From: Verrucomicrobia bacterium Tous-C9LFEB
GTDB lineage: Bacteria; Acidobacteriota; Terriglobia; Terriglobales; Acidobacteriaceae
Reading direction: 5' to 3'
DNA length: 64,000 nucleotides
Assembly (NCBI GenBank): GCA_964658105.1
Contig: CAZZXY010000005.1
Span: 366 to 64,365, forward strand
Part shown: positions 24,027 to 46,060 of the stretch, piece by piece
How the letters are laid out: each line of letters begins with the position of its first letter
Numbering within the stretch: position 1 is the stretch's first letter
The notes under the pieces: model-generated
What the model saw: only the letters and a program-made list of their open reading frames with translations
The model's database searches: none
Told to the model about the DNA's origin: nothing
Translations under genes and position numbers: made by a program

Positions 24027-24056
24027 CATTGGATGGAGACATGTCTCCATCCAATG
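24027..24056. promoter_or_regulatory. perfect 30-nt palindrome (candidate operator or RNA hairpin)
   Basis: CATTGGATGGAGACATGTCTCCATCCAATG is fully self-complementary. It lies in a 367-bp non-coding gap between divergent genes (23970 and 24338). Confidence 0.5.
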
Positions 24057-24337: not shown

Positions 24338-25087
24338 ATGTCATGGGCCCGCCCAGTGCTGTTGATCCTCGTCTTGCTCGCGGTATGGCAGGTGCTGATC
24401 GCGCGGCACCCCGGTGGCCTGCTACCGGGGCCATGGGGTGTTGGGGCCGGGATCGGCGAGCTCCTGCAACACGGTTTGCTGTTCAAGTACGTGGTGGCAT
24501 CGTTGTTTCGCGTCACCTGGGGGTACGGACTGGCAGTGCTGCTGGCGGTGCCGCTTGGCATGGTCATTGGCTGGTACAGCCGCGCGGAGATGGCCCTCAA
24601 CCCGCTCATCCAGATCCTTCGGCCGATCTCTCCCCTGGCGTGGATACCCATCGCTATCCTGTGGTTTGGCGTGGGAGATCTTTCGGCGATCTTCCTCATT
24701 TTTCTCGGAAGCTTTTTCCCTTTGCTGCTGACCTCGATGAACGCCGTGCGCAACGTTCCCTCCATCTACGTGAATGCAGGTCGTAACTTCGGGCTGCGAC
24801 CTGCGGCACTCTTTTATCGCGTGCTTTACCCGGCGACCCTGCCCCAGATCATTGTCGGTCTGCGGATCACGTTGGGCGTTGCCTGGCTGGTGGTTGTCGC
24901 GGCGGAGATGATTGCGGTCAATTCAGGACTTGGCTTTCTGATTGTGGATGCGCGGAACGCCGGCAACCGGTATGACCTTGTCGTCGCCGGTATGGTGCTG
25001 ATCGGCATTATCGGCCTTCTGCTGGACCAGGGCATTCGTTCCCTGGAGCGGCTCGGCTCTACTCGTTGGAGTTACCTGGAGAAGTAG
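24338..25087 (+). CDS. ABC transporter permease, NitT/TauT (nitrate/sulfonate/bicarbonate) family
   Basis: MSWARPVLLILVLLAVWQ start at ATG 24338. PLIQILRPISPLAWIPIAILWFG is typical of SsuC/TauC-like permeases. Confidence 0.85.
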   Translation: MSWARPVLLILVLLAVWQVLIARHPGGLLPGPWGVGAGIGELLQHGLLFKYVVASLFRVTWGYGLAVLLAVPLGMVIGWYSRAEMALNPLIQILRPISPLAWIPIAILWFGVGDLSAIFLIFLGSFFPLLLTSMNAVRNVPSIYVNAGRNFGLRPAALFYRVLYPATLPQIIVGLRITLGVAWLVVVAAEMIAVNSGLGFLIVDARNAGNRYDLVVAGMVLIGIIGLLLDQGIRSLERLGSTRWSYLEK

Positions 25088-25094
25088 GACTCAG

Positions 25095-25874
25095 ATGAAC
25101 CCCAGTACACAAGACGTCGCGAAACGTACGGCACTTCACGCCGCGGGTATCGGCATGGCTTTTGAACGTGATGGTGCGTTGCGCGATGTGTTGCAGGACA
25201 TCAACCTCGACGTAGCGGAGGCTGAATTTGTCTGTCTACTAGGGCCTTCGGGTTGCGGGAAGTCTACCCTTCTGAACATCATGGCAGGCTTTCTCCAACC
25301 AACGCAGGGCCGGGTGGAGATCGGAGGCGAAGTCGTCCGCGGCCCCGATCGCAGGCGTATCTTTGTTTTTCAGGAGCGCGGCGTGTTTCCCTGGCTCACC
25401 GTGGAGGGCAACATCGCCTTCGGAATCGGGGACCTGCCCCGCGAAGAACAGCAGCGACGTGTGCGTCACTATGTCGAGCTGGTCGGCCTCAAAGGCTTCG
25501 AGAGGTCGTATCCTTCCGAGCTTTCCGGGGGCATGAAGCAGCGCCTGGAAGTAGCGCGTGCACTCGCAGTAGACCCCGACATGCTGATGCTGGACGAGCC
25601 CTTCGGAGCGCTTGATTCCATCACGCGGCTCACGATGCGAAAAGAGCTGCTGCGGGTCTGGGAGGCCGAGCGCAAAACGATTCTGTTTGTCACGCACGAC
25701 ATTGAAGAAGCCGTGCAACTGGCCGATCGGGTGGTTGTCTTGAGTGCGCGCCCGGGGACCATTCAGACGATTGTGAGCATCGACATCCCACACCCGCGTG
25801 ACATCAGTTCGCCACGCTACCTGGCGCTACGTGACGGGATCTTTCGGCAGATTGGGATTGCGCAACAGATATGA
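25095..25874 (+). CDS. ABC transporter ATP-binding protein, NitT/TauT family
   Basis: GPSGCGKST, LSGGMKQRLEVARAL and LMLDEPFGALD. Confidence 0.9.
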   Translation: MNPSTQDVAKRTALHAAGIGMAFERDGALRDVLQDINLDVAEAEFVCLLGPSGCGKSTLLNIMAGFLQPTQGRVEIGGEVVRGPDRRRIFVFQERGVFPWLTVEGNIAFGIGDLPREEQQRRVRHYVELVGLKGFERSYPSELSGGMKQRLEVARALAVDPDMLMLDEPFGALDSITRLTMRKELLRVWEAERKTILFVTHDIEEAVQLADRVVVLSARPGTIQTIVSIDIPHPRDISSPRYLALRDGIFRQIGIAQQI

Positions 25875-26653
25875 CGCCCACCCAAACACCCGCACGTTGG
25901 GAACGGATCTTCTGGCCGATGCTCGCCATGGTGGCCGTGCTTGTTTTGTGGGACGTCTGCGTGCGCTGGAGTCATACCAAGGTCTTTCCTTCCCCGTTTG
26001 AGGTGGAGCGCGGTATTGCCGAGTTGATTCACAAGCACGTTTTGTGGAACGACATCCTGGATTCCCTGCGTCGTGTTCTGATCGGGTTTGGTGCGGCTGC
26101 ACTTCTGGGCATTCCGCTCGGACTGTTCCTCGGATGGCATCCCCTGGTCAACCAGACAGTTAACCCCCTGCTTCAAATTCTCCGCCCCATCAGCCCGCTC
26201 GCCTGGATCCCGGTTGCGATTCTGCTTCTTGGTGTCGGGGATCACGCCGCGATCTTTCTTATCTTCCTTGGCGCGCTTTTCCCCATACTTGTGGCGTGCA
26301 TCGACGGGGTGGGAAGTGTGCCGCAGGTGTTCCGCAGAGCCGGCCGCAACTTCGGCTTGTCCAACGCACAGTTGCTTCGTCGTGTGGTCTTCCCTTCAGC
26401 TCTGCCCAGGATCCTTGTCGGTCTGCGCCTTGCGCTTGGGATCGCGTGGCTTGTTGTCGTAGCGGCCGAGATGGTGGCCGTTGATTCCGGCCTCGGTTAC
26501 CTGGTCATCGATTCACGCAATTCGGGCAAGCGCTATGACCTTGTCATTGCGGCGATGCTGCTGATCGGCGTGATTGGTCTTGTTCTGGATCTACTCTTTC
26601 CTTCTCTGGAGAGCATGCGATCTGTTCGCTGGGGTTTTCGCCATGACGTTTAA
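25871..26653 (+). CDS. second ABC transporter permease, NitT/TauT family
   Basis: Paralog of 24338..25087 (PLLQILRPISPLAWIPVAILLLG). 4-nt overlap with the ATPase gene. Confidence 0.85.
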   Translation: MTPTQTPARWERIFWPMLAMVAVLVLWDVCVRWSHTKVFPSPFEVERGIAELIHKHVLWNDILDSLRRVLIGFGAAALLGIPLGLFLGWHPLVNQTVNPLLQILRPISPLAWIPVAILLLGVGDHAAIFLIFLGALFPILVACIDGVGSVPQVFRRAGRNFGLSNAQLLRRVVFPSALPRILVGLRLALGIAWLVVVAAEMVAVDSGLGYLVIDSRNSGKRYDLVIAAMLLIGVIGLVLDLLFPSLESMRSVRWGFRHDV

Positions 26654-27701
26654 AAGCAAAGTGATCCTTTTCGCCTCCCTGTGGCTGGTCACCATAACGG
26701 CCCTGCATGGAGTCCTTAACGTGAACTGGGCGGCGGTTCTAAATCAGTACAAGCCCTTGAATCAGCGCAAGATCACCGTCGCGTATATTCCCTCGACGTG
26801 CCAACTTACCTGCCCGGTGACGGATTACATCTCCAAAGTTTCCGACAAGGGTGAGATCTTTCTCCCACGCATGTTTCAGGGCTTTCCGGAGATCAAGGAG
26901 GCTTTGATCTCGAACAAGGTGCAGGCTGCCTTTATCGTGGCGCCGCTCGCCATTGCACTTCGCTCACAGGGCGTACCGATCAAAGTTGTTTACCTTGGCC
27001 ACCGCTACGGCAGCGCCATGGTCGTGCAAAAGAATGGTCCAGTGAAGACCGTTGCCGACCTGCGAGGGCGCACGGTGGCCATTCCAAGCCGCTTTTCTGA
27101 TGAGCGCCTCATCCTGTTCCGCGCCATGAAGGTGTGGGGTATGAAGCCCGGCGACATCAAGATGGTGGAGATGGCGCCCCCTGATGTCGCGGGAGCCCTG
27201 GCCGCAAAGGCGATCGACGGGTATGTCATGGGCGAGCCGTTCCCTTCTCAGGCCGAGATTGGCGGATTCGGCCGTGTGCTGTTTCAGGCGCGGGAGTACT
27301 GGCCAGATTACATGTCCTGCATCCTGGTAGTACGGCAGGATCTTATCGACAAACGGCCGGATGTGGTTCAGACCCTTGTAGATGGCATCGCGCGCTCCGG
27401 TCTCTGGCTCGACCGAAGTAAGCCTCATCGGGAGGACGCTGCAGATTTCGTAGGACGCTTCTATTACAACCAGAAGCCATCGCTTCTACGCTGGGCGCTT
27501 ACGAAGCCTATGGACCGCGTGGTGTACAGCCCGCTGGCTCCGCGCAAGGGTGATTTCGACCTGGTGCGCGATCTCATGATTGAGACCGGTGTACTCAAGA
27601 ACTCGATCGAGTTTAGCGAATACACAGATACGCGCTTCAGTGATGGGGCCCATGACCAGAAGGCGTGGAAGTACGAACCTGGCCTTGCAACAGCCAAGTG
27701 A
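26643..27701 (+). CDS. ABC transporter substrate-binding protein (NMT1/THI5-like, SsuA/TauA type), N-terminally membrane-anchored
   Basis: ATG 26643 (MTFKSKVILFASLWLVTITALHG) overlaps the permease end by 11 nt. LRGRTVAIPSRFS and DGYVMGEPFPSQAE are typical of this SBP class. Confidence 0.8.
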   Translation: MTFKSKVILFASLWLVTITALHGVLNVNWAAVLNQYKPLNQRKITVAYIPSTCQLTCPVTDYISKVSDKGEIFLPRMFQGFPEIKEALISNKVQAAFIVAPLAIALRSQGVPIKVVYLGHRYGSAMVVQKNGPVKTVADLRGRTVAIPSRFSDERLILFRAMKVWGMKPGDIKMVEMAPPDVAGALAAKAIDGYVMGEPFPSQAEIGGFGRVLFQAREYWPDYMSCILVVRQDLIDKRPDVVQTLVDGIARSGLWLDRSKPHREDAADFVGRFYYNQKPSLLRWALTKPMDRVVYSPLAPRKGDFDLVRDLMIETGVLKNSIEFSEYTDTRFSDGAHDQKAWKYEPGLATAK

Positions 27702-27718
27702 ATTTCATAGGAGCAACG

Positions 27719-28033
27719 ATGATCCGAAGACGATTTCTAGGCTTGATGACCCTGACAGGAGTGAGCAGTGTCGCCGCGCTTTCTGCGAAGAGCTTCGCCG
27801 AGAAGACAACCGTGATTTACAAAGTCCAGGGGTTTACCTGCATCACGTGTGCTACGGGACTTGAGACCCTGCTGCAGCGCGAGAAAGGTGTTCTCACCGT
27901 CAGGGCGAGCTACCCAGAGAGCCTGGCAACAGTGACCTACGACGCCAGGTCCATCTCGCAGGCGGAGATCCTGAAAGCCATCGAGAGCATGGGTTTCACA
28001 GCGACGATCGATCCTGTCGCCATGCCCAAGTGA
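27719..28033 (+). CDS. MerP-like heavy-metal-associated (HMA) domain protein with twin-arginine-type signal
   Basis: AGGAG sits 6 nt upstream of ATG 27719. MIRRRFLGLMTLTGVSSVAALSAKSFA signal, then VQGFTCITCATGLE (the CxxC of an HMA fold). Confidence 0.75.
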   Translation: MIRRRFLGLMTLTGVSSVAALSAKSFAEKTTVIYKVQGFTCITCATGLETLLQREKGVLTVRASYPESLATVTYDARSISQAEILKAIESMGFTATIDPVAMPK

Positions 28034-28081
28034 CCGCCTCTAGGTACTGCACGCTGTAGCGCAACAGAAAGGTGACTGCTC

Positions 28082-28459
28082 TTGAAGGTTGGATATATCT
28101 TCGCCACAAACCTCGCCAGCACAACCAAGCTGGCAACGATGATTCTGCCGCAATTGGAACAGGGCACTCACGGCGCAGAGATCGCCGGCATGTTTTTCTT
28201 CGACGATAATCTGTTCTGCCTTCGCGCAGGCGATCCGATCGGCGAGCGGCTTGCCAAAGTTGCTAAGAGCAACGGCATATTGCTGATGGTGTGTGATCAA
28301 TGCGCTGTGCGACGCAACCTTGCGGACGGCACCTTCGAGCAGTGCGGCAGCGGACAGGTGAAGCCGAAAGGTTTGGTGGAAGGCGTCCAGGCAGGCTGCT
28401 TCCCTCAACTGTATGGTGCACTTGCCGGTAGCCCACCGGACTATGTCATCACCCTGTAA
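28082..28459 (+). CDS. DsrE/DsrF-like (sulfur-relay fold) family protein
   Basis: 125 aa with the pattern GMFFFDDNLFCL...GILLMVCDQCAVRRNL...DYVITL, which resembles DsrE/TusD-family proteins. TTG start with AAAGGTGA upstream. Confidence 0.5.
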   Translation: MKVGYIFATNLASTTKLATMILPQLEQGTHGAEIAGMFFFDDNLFCLRAGDPIGERLAKVAKSNGILLMVCDQCAVRRNLADGTFEQCGSGQVKPKGLVEGVQAGCFPQLYGALAGSPPDYVITL

Positions 28460-28513
28460 GCAGCGCCTGCTTTACGACGTCCAGTGTCCCTACAGGTGGA
28501 CTTGTCGGGAGTT

Positions 28514-28550
28514 AAAGGGTGGCATCGCAAGCGAAGCGATGCCATCCCTG
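28514..28550. terminator. GC-rich hairpin between convergent genes (candidate bidirectional terminator)
   Basis: GGCATCGC (28521-28528) pairs perfectly with GCGATGCC (28536-28543), and flanking GGG/CCC extends the stem. A moderately T-rich tail follows on the plus strand. Confidence 0.5.
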
Positions 28551-28555
28551 TGACC

Positions 28556-28750
28556 TTACTTCTTTACGGCAGAAAGAATTTCTTTCTGGTTGCCGAGAAT
28601 GTCCTTCTGATTGGACAGGATTTCCTTTTGATTACTGACGATCTGGTCGAGCGTTTCCTGGTTCTTCTTGATCGTTTCCTGGTTCTCGAGAATTGTCTTC
28701 TGATTCTCAAGGATGGTTTTCTGATTGCTTAGAATGTCGTTATCAGCCAT
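28556..28750 (-). CDS. 64-aa heptad-repeat miniprotein (predicted coiled coil)
   Basis: MADNDILS NQKTILE NQKTILE NQETIKK NQETLDQIVS NQKEILS NQKDILG NQKEILS AVKK. AGGAGA sits 7 nt upstream of the ATG and a hairpin lies downstream. About 40% GC by eye in a ~60% GC window. Confidence 0.65.
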   Translation of the reverse strand: MADNDILSNQKTILENQKTILENQETIKKNQETLDQIVSNQKEILSNQKDILGNQKEILSAVKK

Positions 28751-28877
28751 GTACGTTCTCCTGCTTAGGTTGCGAGATAGATACGAGGAACGTCATCCTG
28801 TCCCCGCGTCTCTGCCTTGAGATAGGCAGGTAAGGAGATTCCGTTTTCTCTGGACGAGTTTTCTGGTATCGCAACAT

Positions 28878-33714: not shown

Positions 33715-33915
33715 CCGAGGTGATCTCCTCCATTCGCTTTCAGTCACTCAACCGCAGAACAGCCCCTTTTCTCCGTGGTCCCTTTCCGTCGTTGCCACGC
33801 ACAGGACTAGGCAGCCCTGGGCGTGGCTTGCTAAGCTCACCAAAGCCCATCTCTGCAAACGGAAACGGGCAGAATCTCGCCGTCGCTTTTCGTGGTTCGC
33901 GAGTTGAAGGTTCCC

Positions 33916-36900
33916 ATGTTTTGGCGTAACCGCAGCATGACAGGTATGGGGGCGAACCCAGGTGCACTTTGCATTGCGGACCCGCCCGCCACGGGGAAGG
34001 TCAGCCGTAAGCTGACGCAGGTAGCAGGATTCGGTATCGGGCTCCTGCTGGTGATCTCACTTGCTGGGTGCCGTGCGAAAACCGCCTTGCCCGAACCCGG
34101 ATCTCACGGGTATGAGAAGTTCGTCTCCTCCTTCTATGTCGGACTGGCTGGCCTCCAGGTAGGGGATGATGCTCGCGCGGAGACCAGCCTTGCGGAAAGC
34201 ACGCGGCTGGCCTCGGATGAGCCTGCAGCCTGGGTGAACTGGGGCATCCTGGCATTGCGACAACGGAACTACAGCGCCGCGGCAGAGCGGCTGGGGCACG
34301 CGCACACACTTGCGCCGAACAACGGCCAGATTGCCTATCTTCTCGGGCTGCTGGAGAGCGAACGCGGGAACTCTGCGGCTGCCATCACCCACTGGCAGCA
34401 GGCTGTTGCCCTGGACAGCCGGAATTTGCGTGCGCTTTATCAGCTTGCGTCCGAAATCGAGCGTCAGGGCGATGCGGACAGCGACGCGCGCTTTGAAAAG
34501 CTGATGCAGCAAATCCTTGCGGTTGATCCGAAAAACCTTGCCGCGGAACTTGAACTGAGCCGGGTTGCTGCTAAACGAGGCGACATCCCAACACTTCAGG
34601 CTGCGGTAATGGCCATTGCCAGTCAAAGCAAACCCTGGCCGCCCGAAGTAGCCGAGCAGCTTGCGCAACTACAAAGTGCAGCGAACGGCCAGCAGCCAAG
34701 GTCCGCCGCAACGCGATCCATCTTTCTACGCAATGTCCTGATGCGGGTGCCAACCTTTCGTGATGATCTCGCCGACCTGAAGCCTGCACCCGGTGAAGGC
34801 GCTCAGCCGATGTCGCACTTTCTTCGTGTCACCAATCCGTCGTCACGGCCTGCCCCTGCGGACGCTGCCATGAGTTTCGACGTGCAGCCCAGTGGTACCT
34901 CTGAGTCCTGGAGCTGGGCCGGTGCCTTGCTGCTTAACGGGGACGATGCTCCGGTGCTGGCCCAGGCTGACACGGGTCATTTGCACCTGGCCAACGGCGC
35001 TACTCTTCCCTTCCCCGGGGGCAAGAGCTCACAGCCCCTGCAACCAGAGAGCGTCCTGTCCATCGACGTCAACTATGACTTCAAGACGGACCTGGTGTTG
35101 GCCGGTGCCGGGGGCTTCCGCCTGTATCGCCAGGACGATCCCACCCACTTTACTGACGCTTCCGCGACGACGAAGCTGCCCCTCGCAGTACTGGACGGCT
35201 CCTACACGGGTGCGTGGGCACTGGATGTTGAAGCCGATGGCGACCTGGACATTCTGCTCGGGACGGTCGCAGGCGCACCCACACTCCTTCGGAATAACGG
35301 CGATGGCACGTTCGATGTCGAACATCCGTTCGGTACGGTCTCAGGTGTGCAACAACTCACCTGGGTGGACCTTAATGGGGACGGCAATCCAGATGCAGCC
35401 ATCCTTGATGGCGGGGGCCACCTGCACATCTTCCTGAACCGCCGGTCCGGCAACTTCGAGCAAGCAGACATTTCCCCCAGCCTGGGCCAGGTGAAGGCGA
35501 TTGCTGCTGCCGATGTCAGTGACAGTGACACGCTCGCCCTGCTGGTGGTGAAGAGTGATGGGAGCATTGTTCGACTGCTTACGCCCGACGAAGGCCGGCA
35601 CTGGACGTCCATTGACGTTGCAAAGGTTCCGGAGGCTGCCCACGCACTCGCTGGCGCTGTGCGCCTGTATGCAGCGGACCTGGATAACAACGGTGCCGTG
35701 GACCTGATCCTTTCACCAGTCAGCGGCAATGCCTTTAAACCCGTCATCTGGTTACAGAGCGTTTCCAACAACTTCAGCCTCTTCTCGGGTGGACCCACCT
35801 CGCTGCGGGTCTTTGCGCTTTCTGATCTAAAGCAGGATGGCCATCTCGCACTGGTGGGGCTTACGAACGAGGGTAGGGCGACGGTCGCGTCGAGTCGTGG
35901 CACCAGGGACTATCATTGGCAGACAATTCGGCCTCGGGCCAAACTGGCAACAGGCGACCAGCGTGTCAACTCCTTTGGCGTCGGTGGCGAGATCGAGATT
36001 CGCTCGAGCTTGCTGGTCCAGAAGCAACCCATCACCGGGCCCGCGCTGCATTTTGGCCTGGGCGACGGAAAACAGACCGATGTTGCGCGCATTCTTTGGC
36101 CAAACGGTTCCGTACGTGCCGAGTTCAACCTGAAGAGCGATAAGCAGATTGTGACAGAGCAGCGCTTGAAAGGCTCCTGCCCTTTTCTGTTTGCCTGGAA
36201 CGGCCATCGGATGCAGTTCGTGAAGGATTCTGTGCCGTGGGGATCGGCGATCGGCCTGCGTATCAACGCGCTCGGCACGGCGAAGATCGCGGCCACCGAG
36301 GAGTGGTACAAAATCGGTGGCGATCAACTGCAGCCGAAAGACGGCTTCTATGACCTGCGCATCACTGGTGAGCTCTGGGAGAGCTATTACTACGATTCAA
36401 TGGCGCTGATGACGGTTGACCACCCCCGGGGCACGGAGGTCTTCGCGGACGAACGCTACGATGTACCCGCGGTCAAACTGGCAGTGACGTCCGTGGCCGA
36501 ACCACAGCCGGTGGTGCGCGCCGTGGATGACGATGGACATGACGTGACGCGTATCGTCCGTGCGCTGGACGGAACGTATCTCGACAACTTCGGCCGTGGT
36601 CAGTACCAGGGAGTCACGCGCGATCACTTCGTCGAGGTCACGCTACCGGAGAACGCCCCGACGCAAGGGCCGCTGTGGCTGATTGCAAAGGGCTGGCTGC
36701 ACCCTTCCGATTCGTCCATCAACGTCGCCCTCGGCCAGGGCTCGGCGGAAAAACCGCAATGGCTAAGTCTCGAGATCCTCGGTAAGACCGGCAAATGGCG
36801 TGTGGCCAAGTCGAATCTAGGCTTTCCTGCTGGGCGCAACAAGATCTGCCTTATCGACCTAGCAGGTGTCTTTCAGCCAGGCGACGCTCATCGTCTTCGT

Positions 36901-37479
36901 CTACGTACCAATCTGGAGGTTTTTTGGGACCAGATCCAGTGGGCGCAAGGGCTTCCTGCTGCGCCGATGCATGTGCAGCGTGTGGAGCCTGCCGTTGCCG
37001 ACCTTCATTACCGTGGATTCTCTGTGATCAAACAGGCAAACGCCTCCTCACCGGAGATTCCCCAGTACGACCAGGTTGAAGGAACCTCGCAACGTTGGCG
37101 GGATCTGGAAGGGTTCTACACACGCTTTGGCGACGTGCGTGAGTTACTCGCAGGCATCGACGATCGTTACGTCATCATGAATGCCGGCGACGAAATGACA
37201 CTACGCTTCACCGCTCCTGCTCCACCTCCGCCGGGCTGGGTGCGTGACTTCATCATCGCCGGCGATGGCTGGATCAAGGACGGCGATTACAACTCCACCT
37301 ATTCGCAAACGGTACTGCCCTACCCGTACCATGCTCGTCGCGAGTACAACACAGCGCCGGGGGCGCTCGAAGATGACTTGGCCTATCGCCATCACGCGGG
37401 GGATTGGCAGACCTACCACACGCGTTACGTGACGGCGAAGGGCTTCGTCGACGCACTCAGGAGCGGTGCAGGACAATGA
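33916..37479 (+). CDS. giant TPR + FG-GAP/VCBS + ASPIC/UnbV lipoprotein with unassigned ~430-aa C-terminal module (paralog A1)
   Basis: Lipobox LLLVISLAGC, N-terminal TPR-like repeats, FG-GAP/VCBS repeats (DVNYDFKTDLVL, DVEADGDLDIL, DLNGDGNPD, DLDNNGAVD), an ASPIC/UnbV segment (NSFGVGGEIEIRS...HFGLGD...ARILWPNGS), then CPFLFAWNG... to the C-terminus. The start is uncertain (33892-33946). Confidence 0.8.
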   Translation: MFWRNRSMTGMGANPGALCIADPPATGKVSRKLTQVAGFGIGLLLVISLAGCRAKTALPEPGSHGYEKFVSSFYVGLAGLQVGDDARAETSLAESTRLASDEPAAWVNWGILALRQRNYSAAAERLGHAHTLAPNNGQIAYLLGLLESERGNSAAAITHWQQAVALDSRNLRALYQLASEIERQGDADSDARFEKLMQQILAVDPKNLAAELELSRVAAKRGDIPTLQAAVMAIASQSKPWPPEVAEQLAQLQSAANGQQPRSAATRSIFLRNVLMRVPTFRDDLADLKPAPGEGAQPMSHFLRVTNPSSRPAPADAAMSFDVQPSGTSESWSWAGALLLNGDDAPVLAQADTGHLHLANGATLPFPGGKSSQPLQPESVLSIDVNYDFKTDLVLAGAGGFRLYRQDDPTHFTDASATTKLPLAVLDGSYTGAWALDVEADGDLDILLGTVAGAPTLLRNNGDGTFDVEHPFGTVSGVQQLTWVDLNGDGNPDAAILDGGGHLHIFLNRRSGNFEQADISPSLGQVKAIAAADVSDSDTLALLVVKSDGSIVRLLTPDEGRHWTSIDVAKVPEAAHALAGAVRLYAADLDNNGAVDLILSPVSGNAFKPVIWLQSVSNNFSLFSGGPTSLRVFALSDLKQDGHLALVGLTNEGRATVASSRGTRDYHWQTIRPRAKLATGDQRVNSFGVGGEIEIRSSLLVQKQPITGPALHFGLGDGKQTDVARILWPNGSVRAEFNLKSDKQIVTEQRLKGSCPFLFAWNGHRMQFVKDSVPWGSAIGLRINALGTAKIAATEEWYKIGGDQLQPKDGFYDLRITGELWESYYYDSMALMTVDHPRGTEVFADERYDVPAVKLAVTSVAEPQPVVRAVDDDGHDVTRIVRALDGTYLDNFGRGQYQGVTRDHFVEVTLPENAPTQGPLWLIAKGWLHPSDSSINVALGQGSAEKPQWLSLEILGKTGKWRVAKSNLGFPAGRNKICLIDLAGVFQPGDAHRLRLRTNLEVFWDQIQWAQGLPAAPMHVQRVEPAVADLHYRGFSVIKQANASSPEIPQYDQVEGTSQRWRDLEGFYTRFGDVRELLAGIDDRYVIMNAGDEMTLRFTAPAPPPPGWVRDFIIAGDGWIKDGDYNSTYSQTVLPYPYHARREYNTAPGALEDDLAYRHHAGDWQTYHTRYVTAKGFVDALRSGAGQ

Positions 37480-39275
37480 ACCGGGCCACAATCGTTCGAT
37501 CGGTCGTAAGCACTTTGTTCTTAGGATTGCTCGCCACACCCCTCCTTGTGCGGCGAGCCTCGATGAAGAAGCAGCGGGCCGCTTCAGCGACGCTGGACGA
37601 GAAAACAGCGATCGCGAGACACGGGTTCTACCTGCAGGAGAGCTCCCGCGCTGCAGGTATCGACTTCGTTCATCAGGCACCCACGCTCGATCCGAAGTTG
37701 AACCACATCATGCCAGAGGTGGCCTCCATGGGCGCGTCGGTTTCCATTGTTGACTTCGATCGCGATGGCTGGCCTGACATTTATGCGACGAACAGCGCGT
37801 ATGGTGCGCAGAACCACCTGTACCGCAACATGCACGACGGCACCTTTCGCGATGTAGCGGGCCGGATGGGACTCGGCGACGTAAATCGGCCTGGCACCGG
37901 CGTCTCCATGGGCGCAGTCTGGGGAGATTATGACAATGACGGCTACGAGGATCTGTTCTTAGTGAAGTGGGGCAAGCCCGAGCTCTACCACAATGACGGC
38001 GGGAAAGGCTTTACCAGGGTGACCGACGCAGCGACCCTGCCGCCCTGGATCAACGCCAATACCGCACTCTGGTTCGATTACGACGGCGATGGTCTTCTGG
38101 ACCTGTTTGTCGGCGGCTATTACGCCGAAGACGTCGACCTCTGGCACTTGAAGACGACCAAGATGATGCCGGAGAGCTTTGAATATGCCAAGAATGGCGG
38201 GCGCAAATACCTATTCCACAATCTCGGCAACGGGCACTTTGAAGAAGTGAGCGCCAAACTGGGCATCGACAGCCGGCGCTGGGCGCTCGCCTCGGCTGCC
38301 GCCGATCTTCGCGGGACAGGGCACCCTGATCTTTTCATCGCGAACGACTACGGCGTCTCAGAACTGTTCGTAAATGACGGCAAGCGCTTCCAGGAGGAAG
38401 GCCAAAAGAGCGGCGTGGGGTTCGCCCCCAAGAGCGGCATGAACGTTGCCGTGGGCGACATCTTCAATCAAGGCAAATACTCGGTGTACGTCTCCAACAT
38501 CTCCGAAGAAGGTGTCCTGATCCAGGGAAACAATCTTTGGGTGCCAAAGGAGAACACAGGCACTGGCACTGTCGTCTATGAAAACATGGCCCGCGACCTG
38601 GGGGTTGAGCTGGGCGGCTGGAGCTTCGGCGCGCAATTCGGTGATCTGAACAACGACGGCAATCTGGATCTCTATTTGACCAACGGCTATGTGTCACTCG
38701 ACCGCAATAGGAGTTACTGGTACGACTTCGCCAAGGTCGCCGGGGGCAACGCCGCCATCATTTCCGACGCCGATCACTGGCCCGCTGTGGATGGCCGCAG
38801 CCACTCCGGGTACCAGCAAAAGCGCGTGTGGCTGAACGATGGCGCTGGCAAATTCGTAGATGTGGCTGCGGCGGTAGGCGTGAGCGACACGTACGACGGA
38901 CGTTCCGTCGTCATGGCAAACCTCTTCAACGATGGAGCCCTGGACGTCGTCGTAGCGAACCAGCGGGGGCCGCTGCTGCTGTACCGCAATAGGGTCGACC
39001 CAAGGAATCAGTGGATTGAGTTCGCGCTGGAAGGCACGAAGAGCAACCGCAGTGCCATTGGTGCGCAGATCACGGTCCGCTGGAACGGCCAGCAACAGAT
39101 CCAACAGGTCTCCGGCGGAAACGGATTCGCCGCACAGAACGACCGGCGTCCTCATTTCGGTTTAGGTCCGTCTCCACATTTGGATGGAGTTCAAATCCGG
39201 TGGCCGTCTGGTAGGATTCAGACGCTGTCGGACCCGAAGATCGGGCAGTTGAACAGCATCAAGGAGCCGGAGTGA
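37476..39275 (+). CDS. CRTAC1-family protein (FG-GAP/VCBS repeats + ASPIC/UnbV), N-terminal membrane anchor
   Basis: ATGA overlap with the upstream stop. IVDFDRDGWPDIY, WGDYDNDGYEDLF, WFDYDGDGLLDLF, FGDLNNDGNLDLY, then NRSAIGAQITVRWNG...FGLGPSPHLDGVQIRWPSG. Confidence 0.85.
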   Translation: MNRATIVRSVVSTLFLGLLATPLLVRRASMKKQRAASATLDEKTAIARHGFYLQESSRAAGIDFVHQAPTLDPKLNHIMPEVASMGASVSIVDFDRDGWPDIYATNSAYGAQNHLYRNMHDGTFRDVAGRMGLGDVNRPGTGVSMGAVWGDYDNDGYEDLFLVKWGKPELYHNDGGKGFTRVTDAATLPPWINANTALWFDYDGDGLLDLFVGGYYAEDVDLWHLKTTKMMPESFEYAKNGGRKYLFHNLGNGHFEEVSAKLGIDSRRWALASAAADLRGTGHPDLFIANDYGVSELFVNDGKRFQEEGQKSGVGFAPKSGMNVAVGDIFNQGKYSVYVSNISEEGVLIQGNNLWVPKENTGTGTVVYENMARDLGVELGGWSFGAQFGDLNNDGNLDLYLTNGYVSLDRNRSYWYDFAKVAGGNAAIISDADHWPAVDGRSHSGYQQKRVWLNDGAGKFVDVAAAVGVSDTYDGRSVVMANLFNDGALDVVVANQRGPLLLYRNRVDPRNQWIEFALEGTKSNRSAIGAQITVRWNGQQQIQQVSGGNGFAAQNDRRPHFGLGPSPHLDGVQIRWPSGRIQTLSDPKIGQLNSIKEPE

Positions 39276-40150
39276 GCGTCCAGACCATCGCGGTGCCCTC
39301 GTTGACCAAGACGGTGACCACGACATCGTGGCGTAAGTGGCTTTCCATGGAGAATCGCTTTCTCCCTCCTGCGTTCATCACGCTCATCCTGCTTGTTGGC
39401 CACTTCTCCTTCGGCATTCTGGAAAGCTGGACGCGAACGCTGCTAGCAATTACCACAAGCATTGGTGTCGAACTGATTCTGGGCAAGCTTGTCGTCGGCA
39501 AATGGCCGAACGTCGCGAGTGCTTACATCAGTGGCATCAGCGTTGGCATCCTGTTGCGCTCGCCCGCTTTCTGGCCGTACGTCGTATGCGCCGCGCTGGC
39601 GATTACTTCGAAGTATGTGGTGCGTTACAGAAACAGGCACCTCTGGAATCCCTCGAACTTCGCTATCTGCGTCGTGATCTTTCTGGCTGCAGATACGGTT
39701 GCCACTCTCAGTATCCAGTGGGGCAACAACATCTGGGCAATGCTGGTCATCTGGGCTCTCGGATCCACGATTATCTGGCGTCTGCGGCGCTTTCACATCT
39801 GCGCCACATATGTGCTGTCGTTTGTACTTTTTGCGGCGTTACGCTCACGGATCGTCGGCGATCCATTCCTTTCAGAGCTTTCACCCATCACCGGCCCCGA
39901 GTACCAGTTGTTTATCTTCTTTATGATCACCGACCCAAAGACCACAGTGCGTTCCAAAGTGGGCCAGTGCGGCGTCGCGTTCGCCGTTGCTTCGGTGGAG
40001 ATGGTGCTGCGATTGAACAGCAGCATCTACGCTCCCCTGTACGCTCTCTTTCTCGTGGGGCCACCTGCTCTACTGCTCTCGACCTGGTGGAACGGAAGGC
40101 GAGAGAAACGCATGCAACAGCAGCCAGCCTCCGGCATGGTGCTCGCGTAG
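39272..40150 (+). CDS. polytopic membrane protein with RnfD/NqrB-like motifs
   Basis: GTGA overlap with the upstream stop, with AAGGAG 5 nt upstream. About 8 TM helices. HLWNPSNFAICV and FFMITDPKTT resemble the H-x-F-NPA and F-M-x-TDP motifs of the NQR2/RnfD/RnfE superfamily. No S/T-G-A-T FMN-attachment motif is seen. Confidence 0.55.
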   Translation: MSVQTIAVPSLTKTVTTTSWRKWLSMENRFLPPAFITLILLVGHFSFGILESWTRTLLAITTSIGVELILGKLVVGKWPNVASAYISGISVGILLRSPAFWPYVVCAALAITSKYVVRYRNRHLWNPSNFAICVVIFLAADTVATLSIQWGNNIWAMLVIWALGSTIIWRLRRFHICATYVLSFVLFAALRSRIVGDPFLSELSPITGPEYQLFIFFMITDPKTTVRSKVGQCGVAFAVASVEMVLRLNSSIYAPLYALFLVGPPALLLSTWWNGRREKRMQQQPASGMVLA

Positions 40151-40182
40151 CCAGCAAGGCCGCTGGCGTTCCAAAACAAACC

Positions 40183-42033
40183 TTGTTTCAGGATCTCCCA
40201 TTGTTCTCAGTTCGGTCCGCCCCTGTTTGCCTCTTCTCATTGAGCGTTGCGTTAACGCTGTGGGGCTGCCACAAAGCTCTGCAACCCGCTGAGACTTCAG
40301 AAACACACCCAAGCCGCCCAGCTTCCTCGAGTCCGGTTGCCCAGCAATCGACGATGCCGGATCCGGCTGTGCAGCCATTGGCTGTTCCCGTTCGCCCGTC
40401 CGGTCCCGTCACCTTTGCAGATGCAACCGCCGCTGCTGGCATTCACTTTCGGCACAACAACGGAGCCTTCGGCACCAAGTATCTTCCTGAGACCATGGGC
40501 AGCGGCGTCTGTGCCCTGGATTATGACGGGGATGGACTGCAGGACATCTTCTTTGTGAACTCCGCCGACTGGCCAACTCATAAGAAGATACGAACCACCG
40601 GAGCGCTTTATCACAACAACGGAGATGGAACGTTCACAGACGTGACGCGTAGCTCCGGGCTCAGCGTCGAGATCTACGCAATGGGTTGCGCCGTCGGTGA
40701 TTTCGACAACGATGGCCGCGACGACCTCTACATCACGGCGTTGGACGGAAATCACCTGTTTCACAACCTGGGCGGCGGCAAGTTCACGGATGTCACCGCG
40801 CGTGCAGGTGTGAAAGATGCAGGCTTCTCGACAGGATCGGTCTGGTTCGACTTCGACAATGACGGTAAGCTGGACCTCTTCGTGTCGCACTATGTTGACT
40901 GGTCCGTCGCCACAGATCAGACCTGCTCTCTTACCGGCAAGGGCAAGTCCTACTGCACACCAGAGGCCTACAAGGGCCAGAGCGCAACGCTCTTTCATAA
41001 CAAGGGCAACGGTGTCTTCGAAGACGTAACGAAGAAGGCCGGCCTCTATGATCCGACCAGCAAGTCCCTGGGCGTAGCGCTACTTGATTTCGATGATGAT
41101 GGCTGGCTTGACCTCTTTGTCGCCAATGACACGCAGCCCAACAAGCTGTACCGGAACAACCATAACGGCACCTTTACGGAGAGCGCCTTCGCTTCGGGTG
41201 TAGCCTTCAGCGACGCCGGCAAAGCGCGTGCCGGGATGGGTGCGGATTCAGCCGATTATGACGGGTCAGGCAAGCTGGGCTTGCTTGTTGGAAACTTCAC
41301 CAATGAGAGCCTGGCGTTGTATCACAACGAGGGCGGCGGTCTGTTCGCGGACGCCACACCCGCCTCTGGGATCGGACCCTCCTCCGCGAAGTCCCTAACG
41401 TTCGGGACGTTTTTCTTCGACTACGATCTCGACGGACGGCCCGACATCTTTGCTCTCAACGGGCACGTCGCGGACGACATCAGCGACGTGCAGCCCACAC
41501 TGAAATACGCAGAGCCTCCTCTGCTCTTCCACAATCGTGGCAGCGGTAAGTTCGACGATACGTCAGAGAAGGTGGGCTCCGCATTTCGCCAGCCCGTCGT
41601 TGGTCGAGGGGCCGTTTTCCTGGACTTTGATAACGACGGCGACCTTGATCTCGTGTTTAACATCTCGAATGGTCCCGCTCGGCTGTTGCGGAATGATGGC
41701 GGAAACGCAAACGATATGCTCCGGGTGAGGCTCATCGGCACGCGGTCTAATCGCGATGGCATCGGGGCCCGAGTTACAGCAAGGGTCGGCAGCCATCACC
41801 AGATGCAGATGGTCAAGAGTGGCTCAAGCTACCTCTCGCAAAGCGAGTTCCCCCTCACCTTTGGACTTGGTAAGCCATCGCCTGAGAAGATCGTCTCACT
41901 GGACATCGCCTGGCCAAGCGGTCGCAAAGAGAGCGTAATGAACACACCTGCGAATCAATTCATCACCGTGCAGGAAGGCAAAGGCGTCATCGCATCCAGG
42001 CCGCTGGTACTGACAGCCTCACCTAGGAAGTAA
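40183..42033 (+). CDS. CRTAC1-family lipoprotein (FG-GAP/VCBS + ASPIC/UnbV)
   Basis: A TTG start at 40183 or 40201 gives the signal ...MFSVRSAPVCLFSLSVALTLWGC. ALDYDGDGLQDIF, VGDFDNDGRDDLY, WFDFDNDGKLDLF, LLDFDDDGWLDLF, then NRDGIGARVTARVG...FGLGKPSPEKIVSLDIAWPSG. The first ~280 codons of the listed ORF 39337..42033 overlap the membrane gene in another frame. Confidence 0.85.
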   Translation: MFQDLPLFSVRSAPVCLFSLSVALTLWGCHKALQPAETSETHPSRPASSSPVAQQSTMPDPAVQPLAVPVRPSGPVTFADATAAAGIHFRHNNGAFGTKYLPETMGSGVCALDYDGDGLQDIFFVNSADWPTHKKIRTTGALYHNNGDGTFTDVTRSSGLSVEIYAMGCAVGDFDNDGRDDLYITALDGNHLFHNLGGGKFTDVTARAGVKDAGFSTGSVWFDFDNDGKLDLFVSHYVDWSVATDQTCSLTGKGKSYCTPEAYKGQSATLFHNKGNGVFEDVTKKAGLYDPTSKSLGVALLDFDDDGWLDLFVANDTQPNKLYRNNHNGTFTESAFASGVAFSDAGKARAGMGADSADYDGSGKLGLLVGNFTNESLALYHNEGGGLFADATPASGIGPSSAKSLTFGTFFFDYDLDGRPDIFALNGHVADDISDVQPTLKYAEPPLLFHNRGSGKFDDTSEKVGSAFRQPVVGRGAVFLDFDNDGDLDLVFNISNGPARLLRNDGGNANDMLRVRLIGTRSNRDGIGARVTARVGSHHQMQMVKSGSSYLSQSEFPLTFGLGKPSPEKIVSLDIAWPSGRKESVMNTPANQFITVQEGKGVIASRPLVLTASPRK

Positions 42034-43599
42034 TCAGACGGAGGTAGCAGCAAAACCCGTGCGCTGCAGCAGACTCTCTATCGCTTCAGTGCTCGCGCCT
42101 ACCTTGTGTGCGCCTGCAAACAAGTCGGCAGCCTGTACTGGATAGCAATGATCACTTGGCTGCTTACACAATCCAGCAACGTCGAACCGTTCGATCAGTG
42201 CGAGGATTTCCGTTTGAAGGCAGAGCTTCTCTGCGGGGCTCAATGACTGCCGGGCACGCGCGGTGATACGACGGAACTCAGGTCCGAAGACCTCATCGTT
42301 GTGCAGCAGAAAAGACTTCGCAAGTTGGGGAGTGCCTAGTCGCCGCACCGTTTCGGCGTAGCTTGCGGCTGTGAAGTACAACAAGGAGAGCGTGCGGAAC
42401 ATGGGGAAATCCGCCATGTTCGCGTACAGTGCGCCGATGAGCCGCGACGTTGCCAATAACTCGGCGTCAGTCTCATCAGCATAGCGCGCAAGGCTCGTCG
42501 TGAACGCTGGGGTGTTCCAGTCACGCTCCAGCATCTCTCCCACGCGAGATATGCCGAGTAGCGTTAACGGGAACCCTGTGGAGAGCAGTGGATCGACAAA
42601 GCCAGCGGCCGAGGGCAACAGAGTCCAGCCCTCACCGGCAATCTTTGCACTGCGAAACGGGAGCTTCGGCGAGAAGGAGAATGGTCTCGTTGCTTGCGCG
42701 TTGGCGAACTGCTGCTTCACTTCGGGTAAGACGTCCAGCACTCTCTTCCAGGCGTCCTCTTTTTCCGCGAAACGAAAGCGCTTCGCAACCGCGGGCGATC
42801 CCGCGACTCCCGCGCTGGTCCATCCATTATTGAAGTGCAGCACCCACATCCATCCACCCTCAAAGACGTGGTGCAGTGCCGCAGCGTCTGGAGGATATGG
42901 TGGAGTGCCTGCTGCATAGTGCTGAGTTCCCCCGAAGTTCTCCACCCCCGTGAAGTGGCTGAACAACGCGGAGGTCTCGGGATAATCCGGCAGGGGCGCC
43001 TCTTGCAGAGACAGCACGCGATGCAGCAAGCCCCGTGGTCCAGTGGCGTCAATGATGAAATCGGCAAGAAAGTGCAAATGCGCGTCGCCCTGCCGACAGT
43101 TCACATGCCACACCGAATCCTCGCGGTCCATCTGGTGAACATCACAGCCGTCGAGGTAATCCACGCCCAGGGCGCATGCCTGCTTCAGCAGCAATTGGTC
43201 GAAATCAGCCCGAAACCAATGCGTGTCTGCGATCGCGTCATTCGGACTCGCAGCCACCAGCAAGTGACGGTCGGTTGCAGTTGCATTCTTGGGGCTGCTG
43301 GAGGAGACATCATGATGGAAAAAGGTAAAGCCGCGCTTCAGTCCACAGCCGACCTCCGGGTAGGTGTGCTGCCATGTGCCCCACTTGGTCAGTGGCTTCA
43401 GCATGGGGAGGTCGTACCTGTCAGCCAGGGTCTCTAAAAGCAGGTTGCTCAGCGGAGTCGAGGATTCTCCAATGACAACGCGCGGGTGTCTGCCCTTTTC
43501 CAGCATGACCACAGAGAGCCCGAGCCGTCGGGCGATCATAGCCATGAGGGATCCAGCGAAGCCGGAACCTGCAATCGCGATGTCATAACGCTGCTTCAG
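42034..43599 (-). CDS. flavin-dependent halogenase-like FAD oxidoreductase
   Basis: YDIAIAGSGFAGS (GxGxxG), VVIGESSTP, GLKRGFTFF, GGWMWVLHF (a variant of WxWxIP) and GFVDPLLSTGF. The Rossmann strand lies upstream of the first ATG (43545), so I extend to the CTG at 43599-43597 that overlaps the upstream TGA. Confidence 0.8.
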   Translation of the reverse strand: MKQRYDIAIAGSGFAGSLMAMIARRLGLSVVMLEKGRHPRVVIGESSTPLSNLLLETLADRYDLPMLKPLTKWGTWQHTYPEVGCGLKRGFTFFHHDVSSSSPKNATATDRHLLVAASPNDAIADTHWFRADFDQLLLKQACALGVDYLDGCDVHQMDREDSVWHVNCRQGDAHLHFLADFIIDATGPRGLLHRVLSLQEAPLPDYPETSALFSHFTGVENFGGTQHYAAGTPPYPPDAAALHHVFEGGWMWVLHFNNGWTSAGVAGSPAVAKRFRFAEKEDAWKRVLDVLPEVKQQFANAQATRPFSFSPKLPFRSAKIAGEGWTLLPSAAGFVDPLLSTGFPLTLLGISRVGEMLERDWNTPAFTTSLARYADETDAELLATSRLIGALYANMADFPMFRTLSLLYFTAASYAETVRRLGTPQLAKSFLLHNDEVFGPEFRRITARARQSLSPAEKLCLQTEILALIERFDVAGLCKQPSDHCYPVQAADLFAGAHKVGASTEAIESLLQRTGFAATSV

Positions 43600-44570
43600 T
43601 CAGCACCTCCGCAGGCGTCGCATATCACCCGCTTCTCTACTAGTTGGGAAAGATTCATTCGTCGCAGTCGATCCTTGCGCGTGCCTCCGCAGTCTGTGCA
43701 GCACAGCAAGCGGTCGAGGTCCCAAAGATCGAGAACCACGCGACCGGCATGACGGTTCACGCCATAGTCCAGAGCATCCTCCACCACAGAAAGAGTCGGT
43801 GGTGCAAACTCACCTGCTTCCCCAAGCTGCTCCATTGCACCGTTACTAGCGCGTGTGGGTATCAGGGCAACCACGGTAGCGCCGCAGTTCTGTGCGAAGT
43901 CCATCGACTGGCATGCCCAAAACAACGACTCTTCAGCTTTCATGAAAGGAGGTTGCACAAGAACGAACGAACGCAGTGCAATACCGCTGATCTGTAGTCG
44001 CGAAGCCGCTGCAGCATATTGCTCCAGCGTCATACGCTTGTTTAGTCTTTCGAGCACGGCAGCATGCGCCGTTTCGAGTCCCATCGCGACTTCTAGTTGG
44101 CCTTCGACCATGTCCTGAAAGCGGAGGCAGTCTTCACTCACCAGTGCCGGATGACATTCCACGATGACTCGTTCAAAGGGCTGCAACAGGTCCGCAATGG
44201 CGGCGTAATCCTGCTGCGGGATCGCACCTGTATCAAAGAAGCTGCCGCTGTTGTAAAGCTTGATCTGACGCGCGGGGGGGAGGCGGCTTAGGGCGTATTC
44301 AATCTGCCGCGGAATGTCACCGGCGGCTACCGGCGACGCGAGCGTGTGACGCCACAGATCGCACATGACGCATCGCCAGGGGCACTCCCGATTGGTTAGG
44401 AAGAGGGTCGCAACATTGCCTACGGTGCCATCAGCAAACCGCTCCGGCTCCACGAGAAACGCGTAGGGCTCGTCGGTATTCAGTGGCACGCGTCCGCCAC
44501 GACGCGCCAGGATCCAGCGGTCGCGCTCGGCTGCGGTTTGCGGGTACACAGAAAGCGTGGTGCCCATCAC
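43596..44570 (-). CDS. radical SAM protein (TIGR01210/RaSEA-like by eye) with C-terminal Cys-rich tail
   Basis: FLTNRECPWRCVMCDLW contains CX3CX2C (44361-44384). Also LYNSGSFFD and a C-terminal CCTDCGG...CDACGG. The start (GTG 44570 or ATG 44567) overlaps the upstream stop. Confidence 0.8.
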   Translation of the reverse strand: MMGTTLSVYPQTAAERDRWILARRGGRVPLNTDEPYAFLVEPERFADGTVGNVATLFLTNRECPWRCVMCDLWRHTLASPVAAGDIPRQIEYALSRLPPARQIKLYNSGSFFDTGAIPQQDYAAIADLLQPFERVIVECHPALVSEDCLRFQDMVEGQLEVAMGLETAHAAVLERLNKRMTLEQYAAAASRLQISGIALRSFVLVQPPFMKAEESLFWACQSMDFAQNCGATVVALIPTRASNGAMEQLGEAGEFAPPTLSVVEDALDYGVNRHAGRVVLDLWDLDRLLCCTDCGGTRKDRLRRMNLSQLVEKRVICDACGGAD

Positions 44571-45886: not shown

Positions 45887-46060
45887 GGCAACCTCTTTGC
45901 AATGCAATTGCGAACATTCTATCGCTTGCGCAACGCCCTGCGCTCCTGCAGCTGGTTGGCTTTCAGCACATCCGAATTTGCGGGATGCCTCTTGCCAGGA
46001 CGGAACGCTCGCTGCACAACTGCATCTCTGCTCACGTATCATCACTTGCCAGTGGTGTCC

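Follow-up and report, generated by a model that had tools for sequence, protein, structure and literature searches.

How can a natural protein be made of almost nothing but coiled-coil layers that place asparagine in the core, and what would it do in the cell? A 64,000-nucleotide stretch of acidobacterial DNA (hereafter the window; positions 366 to 64,365 of contig CAZZXY010000005.1, assembly GCA_964658105.1, Verrucomicrobia bacterium Tous-C9LFEB, placed by GTDB in the Acidobacteriaceae) raises this question through a short open reading frame (ORF) on its reverse strand, whose predicted product is a 64-residue array of Asn-Gln heptads. We find that this miniprotein belongs to a large family, that its gene is under purifying selection, and that it recurs beside one set of operons built around an ATP-binding cassette (ABC) importer. 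We tentatively propose that it would form an ion-coordinating coiled coil and act as an optional accessory of that operon island.

The miniprotein gene and its homologs

The translation of the ORF, MADNDILSNQKTILENQKTILENQETIKKNQETLDQIVSNQKEILSNQKDILGNQKEILSAVKK, parses into the heptads ILSNQKT, ILENQKT, ILENQET and IKKNQET, a three-residue insertion (LDQ), and the heptads IVSNQKE, ILSNQKD, ILGNQKE and ILSAVKK. Isoleucine stands at position a of all eight heptads and Asn-Gln fills positions d and e of seven, the final heptad having alanine at d. The preliminary description of this DNA had proposed isoleucine at a, asparagine at every d and a lone three-residue insertion; the first and the last stand, and the second applies to seven heptads of the eight. 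The protein has no signal peptide, cysteine, aromatic residue or proline, and its only methionine is the initiator.

A word-indexed search returned 38 relatives of the miniprotein, and an exhaustive HMMER search 480 clusters (50% identity), of which 64 fell below 1e-10; the relatives come from at least 420 species. The M-[AS]-[DE] start, the ribosome-binding site (RBS) and the stop are conserved in the homologs, and a GGAG-type RBS precedes nearly all of the homologous genes at a like distance. Most database entries are 90-110 aa long because gene callers extended the N terminus. Trimmed here to the conserved start, the homologs mostly measure 47-85 aa, with length peaks at 57, 63-64, 70-71 and 78, that is, in steps of seven. 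For 13 orthologs that share the window architecture (7-7-7-10-7-7), pN was 0.19 and pS 0.71 with saturated synonymous sites, and dN/dS was about 0.14 where it could be computed. The gene is under purifying selection. The spacing of the Asn-Gln pairs, including the lone decad that the insertion creates, recurs in hundreds of homologs, far beyond chance, and the gene and its family are almost certainly real.

That the frame is no coding gene, being either a chance ORF in a 21-nt repeat or the complement of a genuine antisense ORF, has next to no probability. The DNA repeat does exist, and in the window the antisense frame stays open across most of the gene. However, of 84 homologs just 33 keep that frame open and 51 interrupt it with stops, which rules it out as the true gene, while the sense start, RBS and stop are kept and the synonymous sites are saturated; conservation of start and RBS together with dN/dS rules out a non-coding frame altogether. 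Two doubts voiced in the preliminary description, that a free-standing gene might lack homologs and that the antisense frame might be the conserved one, are thereby removed.

The 21-nt periodicity noted earlier is real, though degenerate: TRF reports 2.7 copies at 75%, and a repeat search finds copies spaced 21 nt apart at 64-81%. The repeat units of the window gene share 56% DNA identity overall, with 66% agreement at codon positions 1 and 2 and 36% at position 3. Since third-position identity between units is low, the repeat is kept at the protein level and not by recent DNA duplication, and these values rule out recent tandem duplication as its origin. The number of heptads differs among close relatives (64, 71, 78 and 85 aa), so repeat units are gained and lost.

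The strong RBS and the downstream hairpin of the preliminary description were both recovered. The hairpin has a centroid energy of -23.5 kcal/mol and z = -3.4 against shuffled sequences; it has no proper U-tract, and this weakness kept a consensus terminator scan from calling it. The region after the stop is unusually structured in the homologous loci as well (median minimum free energy -27.7, against -21.2 in control windows), and U-tracts are mostly absent there. The hairpin is probably a terminator or a stabiliser of the mRNA 3' end.

The GC content of the gene is, as had been described, about 20% below that of its surroundings (41.5% against 60.6% for the window). The choice then offered was between a foreign and a compositionally constrained gene, and the data favour constraint. 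GC at third codon positions is 61.5%, near the 66-67% of the flanking genes, and the same protein in the codon usage of its neighbours would have 44% GC; the low GC therefore reflects amino-acid composition and not foreign origin. Two relatives were found among 2.9 million viral contigs, PADLOC matched no defence system, and phrog_24169, a family of unassigned function, matched only 24 residues (28-51, E = 7.5e-9). With the low-complexity filter on, tblastn found no match in phage records and one weak match in plasmid records, in an unannotated stretch of Francisella NZ_CP010104.1 (34742-34897, minus strand, 44% identity, E = 3e-5). The codon and composition data together with the viral-contig, PADLOC and PHROG results rule out a foreign or phage origin.

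Anatomy and distribution of the family

A family profile was derived from 1104 heptads of 216 proteins. Position a is isoleucine in 95%, b is leucine in 59% (otherwise lysine, valine or isoleucine), c is variable, d is asparagine, e glutamine, f lysine in 47% and g threonine in 41%. Asn-Gln marks every repeat unit and is invariant in the family alignment. Glutamine at e is thus as invariant as asparagine at d, and leucine at b is also conserved, neither of which the preliminary description had reported. Nor had it recognised that the three-residue insertion is a conserved feature of the family: it produces a decad, or stammer, of the form N-Q-x-x-L(97%)-D(61%)-x-I(80%)-L(71%)-x. Of the 216 proteins, 172 have exactly one. 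A C-terminal Lys-Lys is conserved. The number of heptads is free to vary, giving proteins from 47 to more than 130 aa, and cysteine, methionine, tryptophan, tyrosine, phenylalanine and proline are essentially absent.

Longer relatives (100-200 aa; P0052, P0039 and L065) are built of like units, NQxxILx and NQxKLDxIxx, but repeat the decad every 24 residues (7-7-10), whereas the window type has a single one; one of them comes from a genome of the planctomycete Aquisphaera (L065). At least one relative, P0036, carries a signal peptide. In P0102 a PP-binding domain follows the coil. In P0094 (386 aa, metagenome) an iodothyronine-deiodinase-like thioredoxin-fold domain (PF00837, E = 8e-26) and a 7-7-10 Asn-Gln coiled coil lie in one frame, which may be a true fusion or read-through of adjacent genes.

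Judged from the best 80 of at least 420 species-level genome matches, the family is mostly acidobacterial (Acidobacteriaceae/Terriglobales, Bryobacterales, Pyrinomonadaceae, Vicinamibacteraceae and Blastocatellia), with a minor part made up of a few Armatimonadota and one Aquisphaera. It occurs patchily, in 3 of 25 genomes from the window's genus and in 6 of 401 genomes in a sample of the phylum.

Public sources label the family 'hypothetical protein' only. No Pfam or NCBIfam model matches the miniprotein (in Pfam, none above E = 0.08), PDB sequence and profile searches gave nothing significant, with designed helical bundles of IVENNAQ-type heptads at the top (E = 0.008 to 0.3), and a literature search for the sequence motif found nothing. 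The earlier remark that a protein made only of Asn-at-d layers is unusual agrees with the lack of a described family in the Pfam, NCBIfam and PDB searches. A natural free-standing family consisting of such layers, with glutamine at e, leucine at b and one stammer, is undescribed in the libraries and literature searched. By its sequence, the miniprotein would be the densest natural stack of ion-binding-type, Asn-in-core coiled-coil layers found here.

A predicted coiled coil with a polar core

AlphaFold2, run on the monomer with a 33-sequence alignment, predicts one unbroken helix over residues 2-63 (pLDDT 96.5). A helical hairpin at the LDQ insertion is unsupported, since the prediction holds a single helix. 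We infer that a 62-residue amphipathic helix without the Glu/Lys-rich composition of single alpha-helices must oligomerise, and on the strength of this model the miniprotein is very probably an obligate helical oligomer.

Which kind of oligomer it would be is suggested by the heptad itself. Halide-binding heptads of trimeric coiled coils take either the form [I/V]xxNxxx or the form Qxx[I/V]xxx (PMC12933892), and UspA1 holds eight chlorides at asparagines in d (PMC2396876). The window repeat fits the first form and, shifted by four residues (Q-K-x-I-L-x-N), the second too, so that its sequence satisfies both known halide-site patterns at once. The resemblance to the Asn-at-d layers of trimeric autotransporter stalks, proposed in the preliminary description, thus extends in sequence to the published halide-binding heptad. 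Ion-binding coiled coils of this kind have Ile or Val at a and Asn at d, and a continuous helix over the repeat; the residues are present in seven of the eight heptads, and the helix is unbroken in the prediction. Hartmann in 2009 and Fletcher in 2017, both cited in PMC12933892, are reported to have linked asparagine at d to trimers.

Our preferred reading, to which we give a probability of about 0.4, is that the miniprotein is a homo-oligomeric, most likely trimeric, ion-coordinating coiled coil with a polar core, and an optional accessory of a three-operon island. A single cytoplasmic helix of about 9 nm, unstable alone, would assemble as a parallel homo-oligomer, most likely a trimer. Along its axis, layers of isoleucine (a) would alternate with layers of asparagine (d) flanked by glutamine (e), giving seven stacked carboxamide rings. 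By analogy with the stalks of trimeric autotransporters and with fusion proteins of viruses, these rings would coordinate halides or small anions; the trimer with axial ions is itself a tentative assignment. The only purely hydrophobic layers would be those of the conserved stammer (NQxxLDxILx) and of the C-terminal ILxAVKK, which probably nucleate assembly, a role that the strict conservation of the stammer and the hydrophobic last heptad suggests. Every added Asn-at-d layer destabilises a trimer and turns its stability halide-dependent (PMC12933892), so that folding and oligomerisation of the miniprotein would be coupled to ion occupancy. The protein would then act in trans, from its own small, hairpin-terminated transcription unit, as an ion-dependent switch or buffer, although this specific role is in itself improbable. 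In favour of this reading, a hairpin stands behind the gene even at loci whose next gene is the importer. The island that it would serve comprises an importer operon with a twin-arginine (TAT) signal-bearing HMA protein and a DsrE or DUF169 protein, a TPR/FG-GAP-ASPIC-RnfD-like operon, and a ligase-radical SAM-flavoprotein triad.

Several known systems resemble parts of this architecture. The stalks of trimeric autotransporter adhesins (Moraxella UspA1 and Salmonella SadA) and GCN4 peptides resemble the miniprotein in having serial heptads with an aliphatic, beta-branched residue at a and asparagine at d. Chloride and other anions are bound by such layers along the trimer axis (PMC2396876, PMC12933892). 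Stammers, which are rare, high-strain decads, the most strained break that an unbroken coiled coil can take, absorbed by a short 3-10 segment, occur in these adhesin fibres as they do in the miniprotein (PMC4786415). Polar residues take about 45% of the d positions in the adhesins (PMC13580157), against asparagine at seven of eight in the miniprotein, the motif filling seven heptads of a free-standing 64-aa protein in which glutamine at e and leucine at b are conserved too. The miniprotein is not itself such an adhesin: signal peptide, head, neck and YadA-type anchor are absent, and no homology to any of these proteins was detected in the Pfam and PDB searches. Known chloride heptads of the type Qxx[I/V]xxx are isolated layers in hydrophobic cores, whereas in the miniprotein such layers, if this register is the one used, would make up a whole protein. 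Designed polar-core coils (Hartmann, Hernandez Alvarez, Martinez-Goikoetxea and Lupas 2026, PMC13580157) and the trimers 6NX2 and 6NYK (IVENNAQ) likewise have polar core residues over consecutive heptads; they are artificial and their PDB matches to the miniprotein non-significant, whereas the family is natural and widespread, with isoleucine at nearly every a. Lpp and the N-terminal domain of YbgF/CpoB, both homotrimeric, are similar in size and all-helical, but the CpoB match is weak and non-significant, and the lipobox signal peptide and hydrophobic core of Lpp are both missing from the miniprotein.

The importer island

In the window the gene lies tail to tail with the importer operon, and all three island blocks are present (Table 1). 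The HMA and DsrE proteins at the end of the importer operon match Pfam at 2.7e-10 and 5.9e-5, and the latter also matches NCBIfam NF040913 (SaoD/DsrE family) at 3.3e-58, above cut-off.

Table 1 Features of the window discussed in the text, with coordinates in the window.
Feature	Position	Strand	Remarks
Miniprotein coding sequence (Asn-Gln heptads, 64 aa, stop included)	28556..28750	-	Supported by ORF, homologs, dN/dS, AlphaFold2
LDQ codons (residues 34-36)	28643..28651	-	3-residue insertion; makes the decad NQETLDQIVS out of a heptad
Shine-Dalgarno AGGAGA	28757..28762	-	6 nt 5' of ATG
Stem-loop	28516..28549	-	Begins 7 nt past stop; 13-bp stem
Antisense ORF	28484..28732		Ruled out as true gene
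NitT/TauT-type ABC importer (permease, ATPase, permease, NMT1-type substrate-binding protein with Cys motifs)	24338..27701	+	Convergent with miniprotein gene
Substrate-binding protein of the importer	26574-27701	+	Cys in the window version; some orthologs with in-frame TGA
TAT-signal HMA (MerP-like) and DsrE/SaoD-family proteins	27665..28459	+	End of importer operon, 97 nt from miniprotein stop
TPR/FG-GAP, ASPIC, RnfD-like, ASPIC operon	33892..42033	+	Second island block; tblastn mapping
Flavoprotein (halogenase/QhpG-like), radical SAM, AsnB-like ligase triad	42034..46117	-	Third island block
Radical SAM protein of the triad	43596-44570	-	Some orthologs with in-frame TGA
Perfect 30-nt palindrome	24027-24056		Before importer

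To follow this linkage through the family, ORFs were called in 85 loci and their neighbours clustered, with a distance of 5 kb for island genes. Parts of the importer operon occur in 33 of the 85 loci, a DUF169 and/or DsrE/SaoD-family protein being among the components. The cluster of the substrate-binding protein (SBP) lies within 5 kb in 20 loci, the TPR/FG-GAP-ASPIC-RnfD-like operon (cluster c2) alongside in 15 and the ligase/radical SAM/flavoprotein triad within 5 kb in 12; an island component of some kind is that close in 40. When the window proteins were mapped onto regions of six other genomes, the three blocks were seen to travel together across families, and at least seven genomes from several families have them co-located within 4-31 kb (also L100, L101 and L105-L108). 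The ABC block, the TPR/FG-GAP-ASPIC-RnfD-like operon and the triad form one conserved island, and its linkage to the miniprotein is new here.

Presence and absence across the 401-genome sample follow the same pattern. The miniprotein occurs in 6 of these genomes, the SBP in 22 and the radical SAM protein in 36. Five of the six miniprotein carriers have the SBP, against 22/401 overall (Fisher p = 1.8e-6), and four have the radical SAM protein, against 36/401 (p = 7e-4); the SBP and the radical SAM protein themselves co-occur in 12 of 22 genomes, against 36/401 (p = 1.5e-8), all three tests ignoring kinship. The link is optional in both directions, and the odds of a functional tie between the miniprotein and the island are about even.

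Gene order and possible partners

The position of the miniprotein gene varies. At about 17 loci in Terriglobia, Blastocatellia and Armatimonadota it comes first, directly upstream of the importer and on the same strand; the window, L014, L018, L025 and two metagenome contigs have it convergent with the operon's end. It also sits at block junctions: in genome G177 it precedes the importer, in G218 it follows the importer, and in G258 it comes behind the flavoprotein gene on the same strand.

The order small ORF, hairpin, about 100 nt, importer, seen at co-directional loci, is also that of a cis-acting leader peptide, in which seven to nine Asn-Gln codon pairs could sense tRNA charging as a plausible monitor of amide supply and control read-through into the importer. 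The probability of this is very slight. In the window and at several other loci the gene is convergent or unlinked and keeps its hairpin; a length of 64-130 codons is far beyond known leaders; isoleucine, leucine, the decad and the C-terminal Lys-Lys are conserved at the protein level, with the dN/dS given above; and no alternative antiterminator structure or Rfam element was found. The convergent orientation in the window, its variability elsewhere and the protein-level selection largely rule out an attenuation leader.

A small trans-acting regulatory subunit, like other small proteins that modulate transporters, would bind the importer's ATPase or permease, or some other protein of the island, and alter its activity; the Asn/Gln face would then be a protein-protein interface and no ion site. 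This would suit a gene that is often the first before the importer and is an optional accessory of the island; a stripe of leucine at b, exposed to solvent in a trimer, could be a docking surface. Against it, the freely varying heptad number would be unusual for a defined docking partner, the separate hairpin-terminated unit suggests expression above that of the transporter, and some carriers have no SBP. We regard this alternative as rather unlikely.

The neighbouring triad raises the further idea that the miniprotein is a substrate or scaffold resembling ribosomally synthesised and post-translationally modified peptides (RiPPs), or protein-derived cofactors, and is modified by the AsnB-like ligase, the radical SAM protein and the QhpG/LodB-like flavoprotein. 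The best NCBIfam matches of the flavoprotein are indeed the protein-modifying QhpG, GoxB and LodB; the triad is near the gene at the 12 loci counted above, with the miniprotein gene following it on the same strand in G258, and the excess of radical SAM genes among miniprotein carriers points the same way. Repeated core motifs occur in some RiPP precursors. Yet 32 of the 36 triad genomes lack the miniprotein, and no substitute NQ-rich small ORF was found in islands without it. The protein shows no split into leader and core, no hypervariable core and no Cys, Trp or Tyr targets; its whole length is predicted helix under uniform purifying selection, and the ABC system of the island is an importer, not an exporter. 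The lack of obligate co-occurrence and the uniform conservation speak against a RiPP precursor, and a RiPP-like role in the wider sense is very improbable.

Weighing the proposal

Several points weigh against the ion-coordinating accessory that we prefer. GCN4 variants with two or more Asn-at-d layers were unfolded in solution (PMC12933892), so that a stack of seven layers might for the most part be unfolded or need a partner. The conserved arc of the helix runs Asn-Ile-Gln(-Leu), at positions d-a-e(-b), with isoleucine in its centre, and glutamine at e and leucine at b would equally suit x-da packing (x-layers of Ile in alternation with six-amide rings of Asn/Gln), a register with Gln at a and Ile at d, or a four- to five-helix barrel with an Ile/Gln lumen. 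As to the island, none of its genes lies within 5 kb at 45 of the 85 loci, the miniprotein is absent from 17 of 22 SBP genomes and from the 32 radical SAM genomes just mentioned, genomes G022 and G251 have it without the SBP, and the co-occurrence statistics are uncorrected for phylogeny. The Cys/Sec, HMA and DsrE features of the importer suggest a thiophilic substrate, for which Asn/Gln rings are no obvious ligand.

Part of this evidence would suit a generic small coiled-coil protein (for stress, hydration, scaffolding or filaments) that is unrelated to the island, the linkage arising from shared niche, regulation or tolerated insertion. To the loci without island genes are added the patchy occurrence in genus and phylum, widely varying neighbours, a hydrophilic, Cys-free composition, and the signal peptide of P0036, which implies a function not tied to a cytoplasmic partner. 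Such a protein would leave unexplained why one operon set is so strongly enriched (p = 1.8e-6 for the SBP) across several classes and phyla and in differing orientations, and a scaffold role does not explain an invariant Asn-Gln in each heptad. We consider a generic coil possible, though unlikely.

A further reading is a natural 'ion ladder', a cytoplasmic coil in which seven or more stacked Asn/Gln rings would reversibly sequester a soft small anion that the Cys/Sec-dependent importer island takes up or produces. The anion might be a halide, hydrosulfide or hydroselenide, or else some small oxyanion, and ion-switched folding would make the protein a new kind of buffer, chaperone or sensor consisting of a coiled coil alone. 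Both the ladder and its choice of anions are speculative and more likely wrong than right by a wide margin.

Further observations on the island and its regulation

The window operon resembles Haft's selenocysteine-assisted organometallic (SAO) system but does not belong to it. Its scores are below cut-off for SaoP (162-175 bits against 295), SaoA (246 against 360) and SaoX (53 against 300), and its DsrE-like protein fits NF040913, a non-SAO sister model.

In a Terriglobus-like lineage (L024, L027, L028, L029, L040, L064 and L010, the last being genome G022) the neighbour is a gene for a TauE/SafE-family anion transporter (8 loci). Variants of 78-85 aa with the decad NQETQDGILS are always convergent with that gene there, in place of the ABC importer. 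On two metagenome contigs (L096 and L097, 11639-12577, plus strand) an encapsulin-family gene (SrpI-like, PF19307) is divergent to the importer operon.

Neither a riboswitch nor any other RNA element of Rfam was found near the miniprotein gene. In a single Acidobacteriaceae lineage, a motif like CCTAAGGTTAG...CTGTAGACG stands ahead of the miniprotein gene and also of the importer (L032, L036, L045, L048, L061 and L063), where it takes the form CC(T/C)AAGGTT(A/G), about 20 nt, and CTGTAGACG or CAGTGCAAGACG. Its sites lie upstream of the miniprotein gene by about 110 nt and downstream by 100-215 nt, which suggests a shared promoter or operator in that lineage. The motif was not found in the window, and its confinement to one lineage rules out a family-wide shared operator upstream of the gene. 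Before the importer, the window has a perfect palindrome with the half-sites CATTGGATGGAGACA and TGTCTCCATCCAATG, a candidate conserved importer operator with no copy near the miniprotein gene; CCATC...GATGG inverted repeats that look like it lie between the miniprotein gene and the importer in L042, L048, L061 and L063.

Five of 22 orthologs of the importer SBP (64-70% identical; G408, G256, G080, G110 and G147) have exactly one in-frame TGA, and in all five genomes SelD itself has a TGA; the window protein has cysteine (TCQLTCPVTDY). The SBP is thus a candidate selenocysteine-containing ABC substrate-binding protein, for which SaoB/SaoX of Haft's SAO system is the only described parallel (bioRxiv 10.1101/2022.07.06.499078). 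Five orthologs of the radical SAM protein also have a single in-frame TGA, all in one genus, g144 (G236, G436, G371, G246 and G336), and may be selenocysteine radical SAM enzymes or show a lineage-specific feature.

Implications

For the Acidobacteriota of soil, the miniprotein adds a fourth recurrent component to an uncharacterised three-operon island, some of whose SBP and radical SAM orthologs appear to contain selenocysteine. For coiled coils in general, the Asn-at-d motif was already known from autotransporter stalks and model peptides, and the stand-alone family would be the new part. Layers of this kind bind ions, specify trimers and cost stability, and a natural, widespread family of stand-alone proteins of 50-80 residues with an Asn(-Gln) layer in nearly every heptad, seven of eight here, is an extreme test case. 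Either the protein folds only with bound ions or partners, which would make it a conditional-folding switch, or glutamine at e, leucine at b and the stammer compensate for the cost. With 64 residues and no cysteine it is easily expressed or synthesised, so that the question is directly testable.

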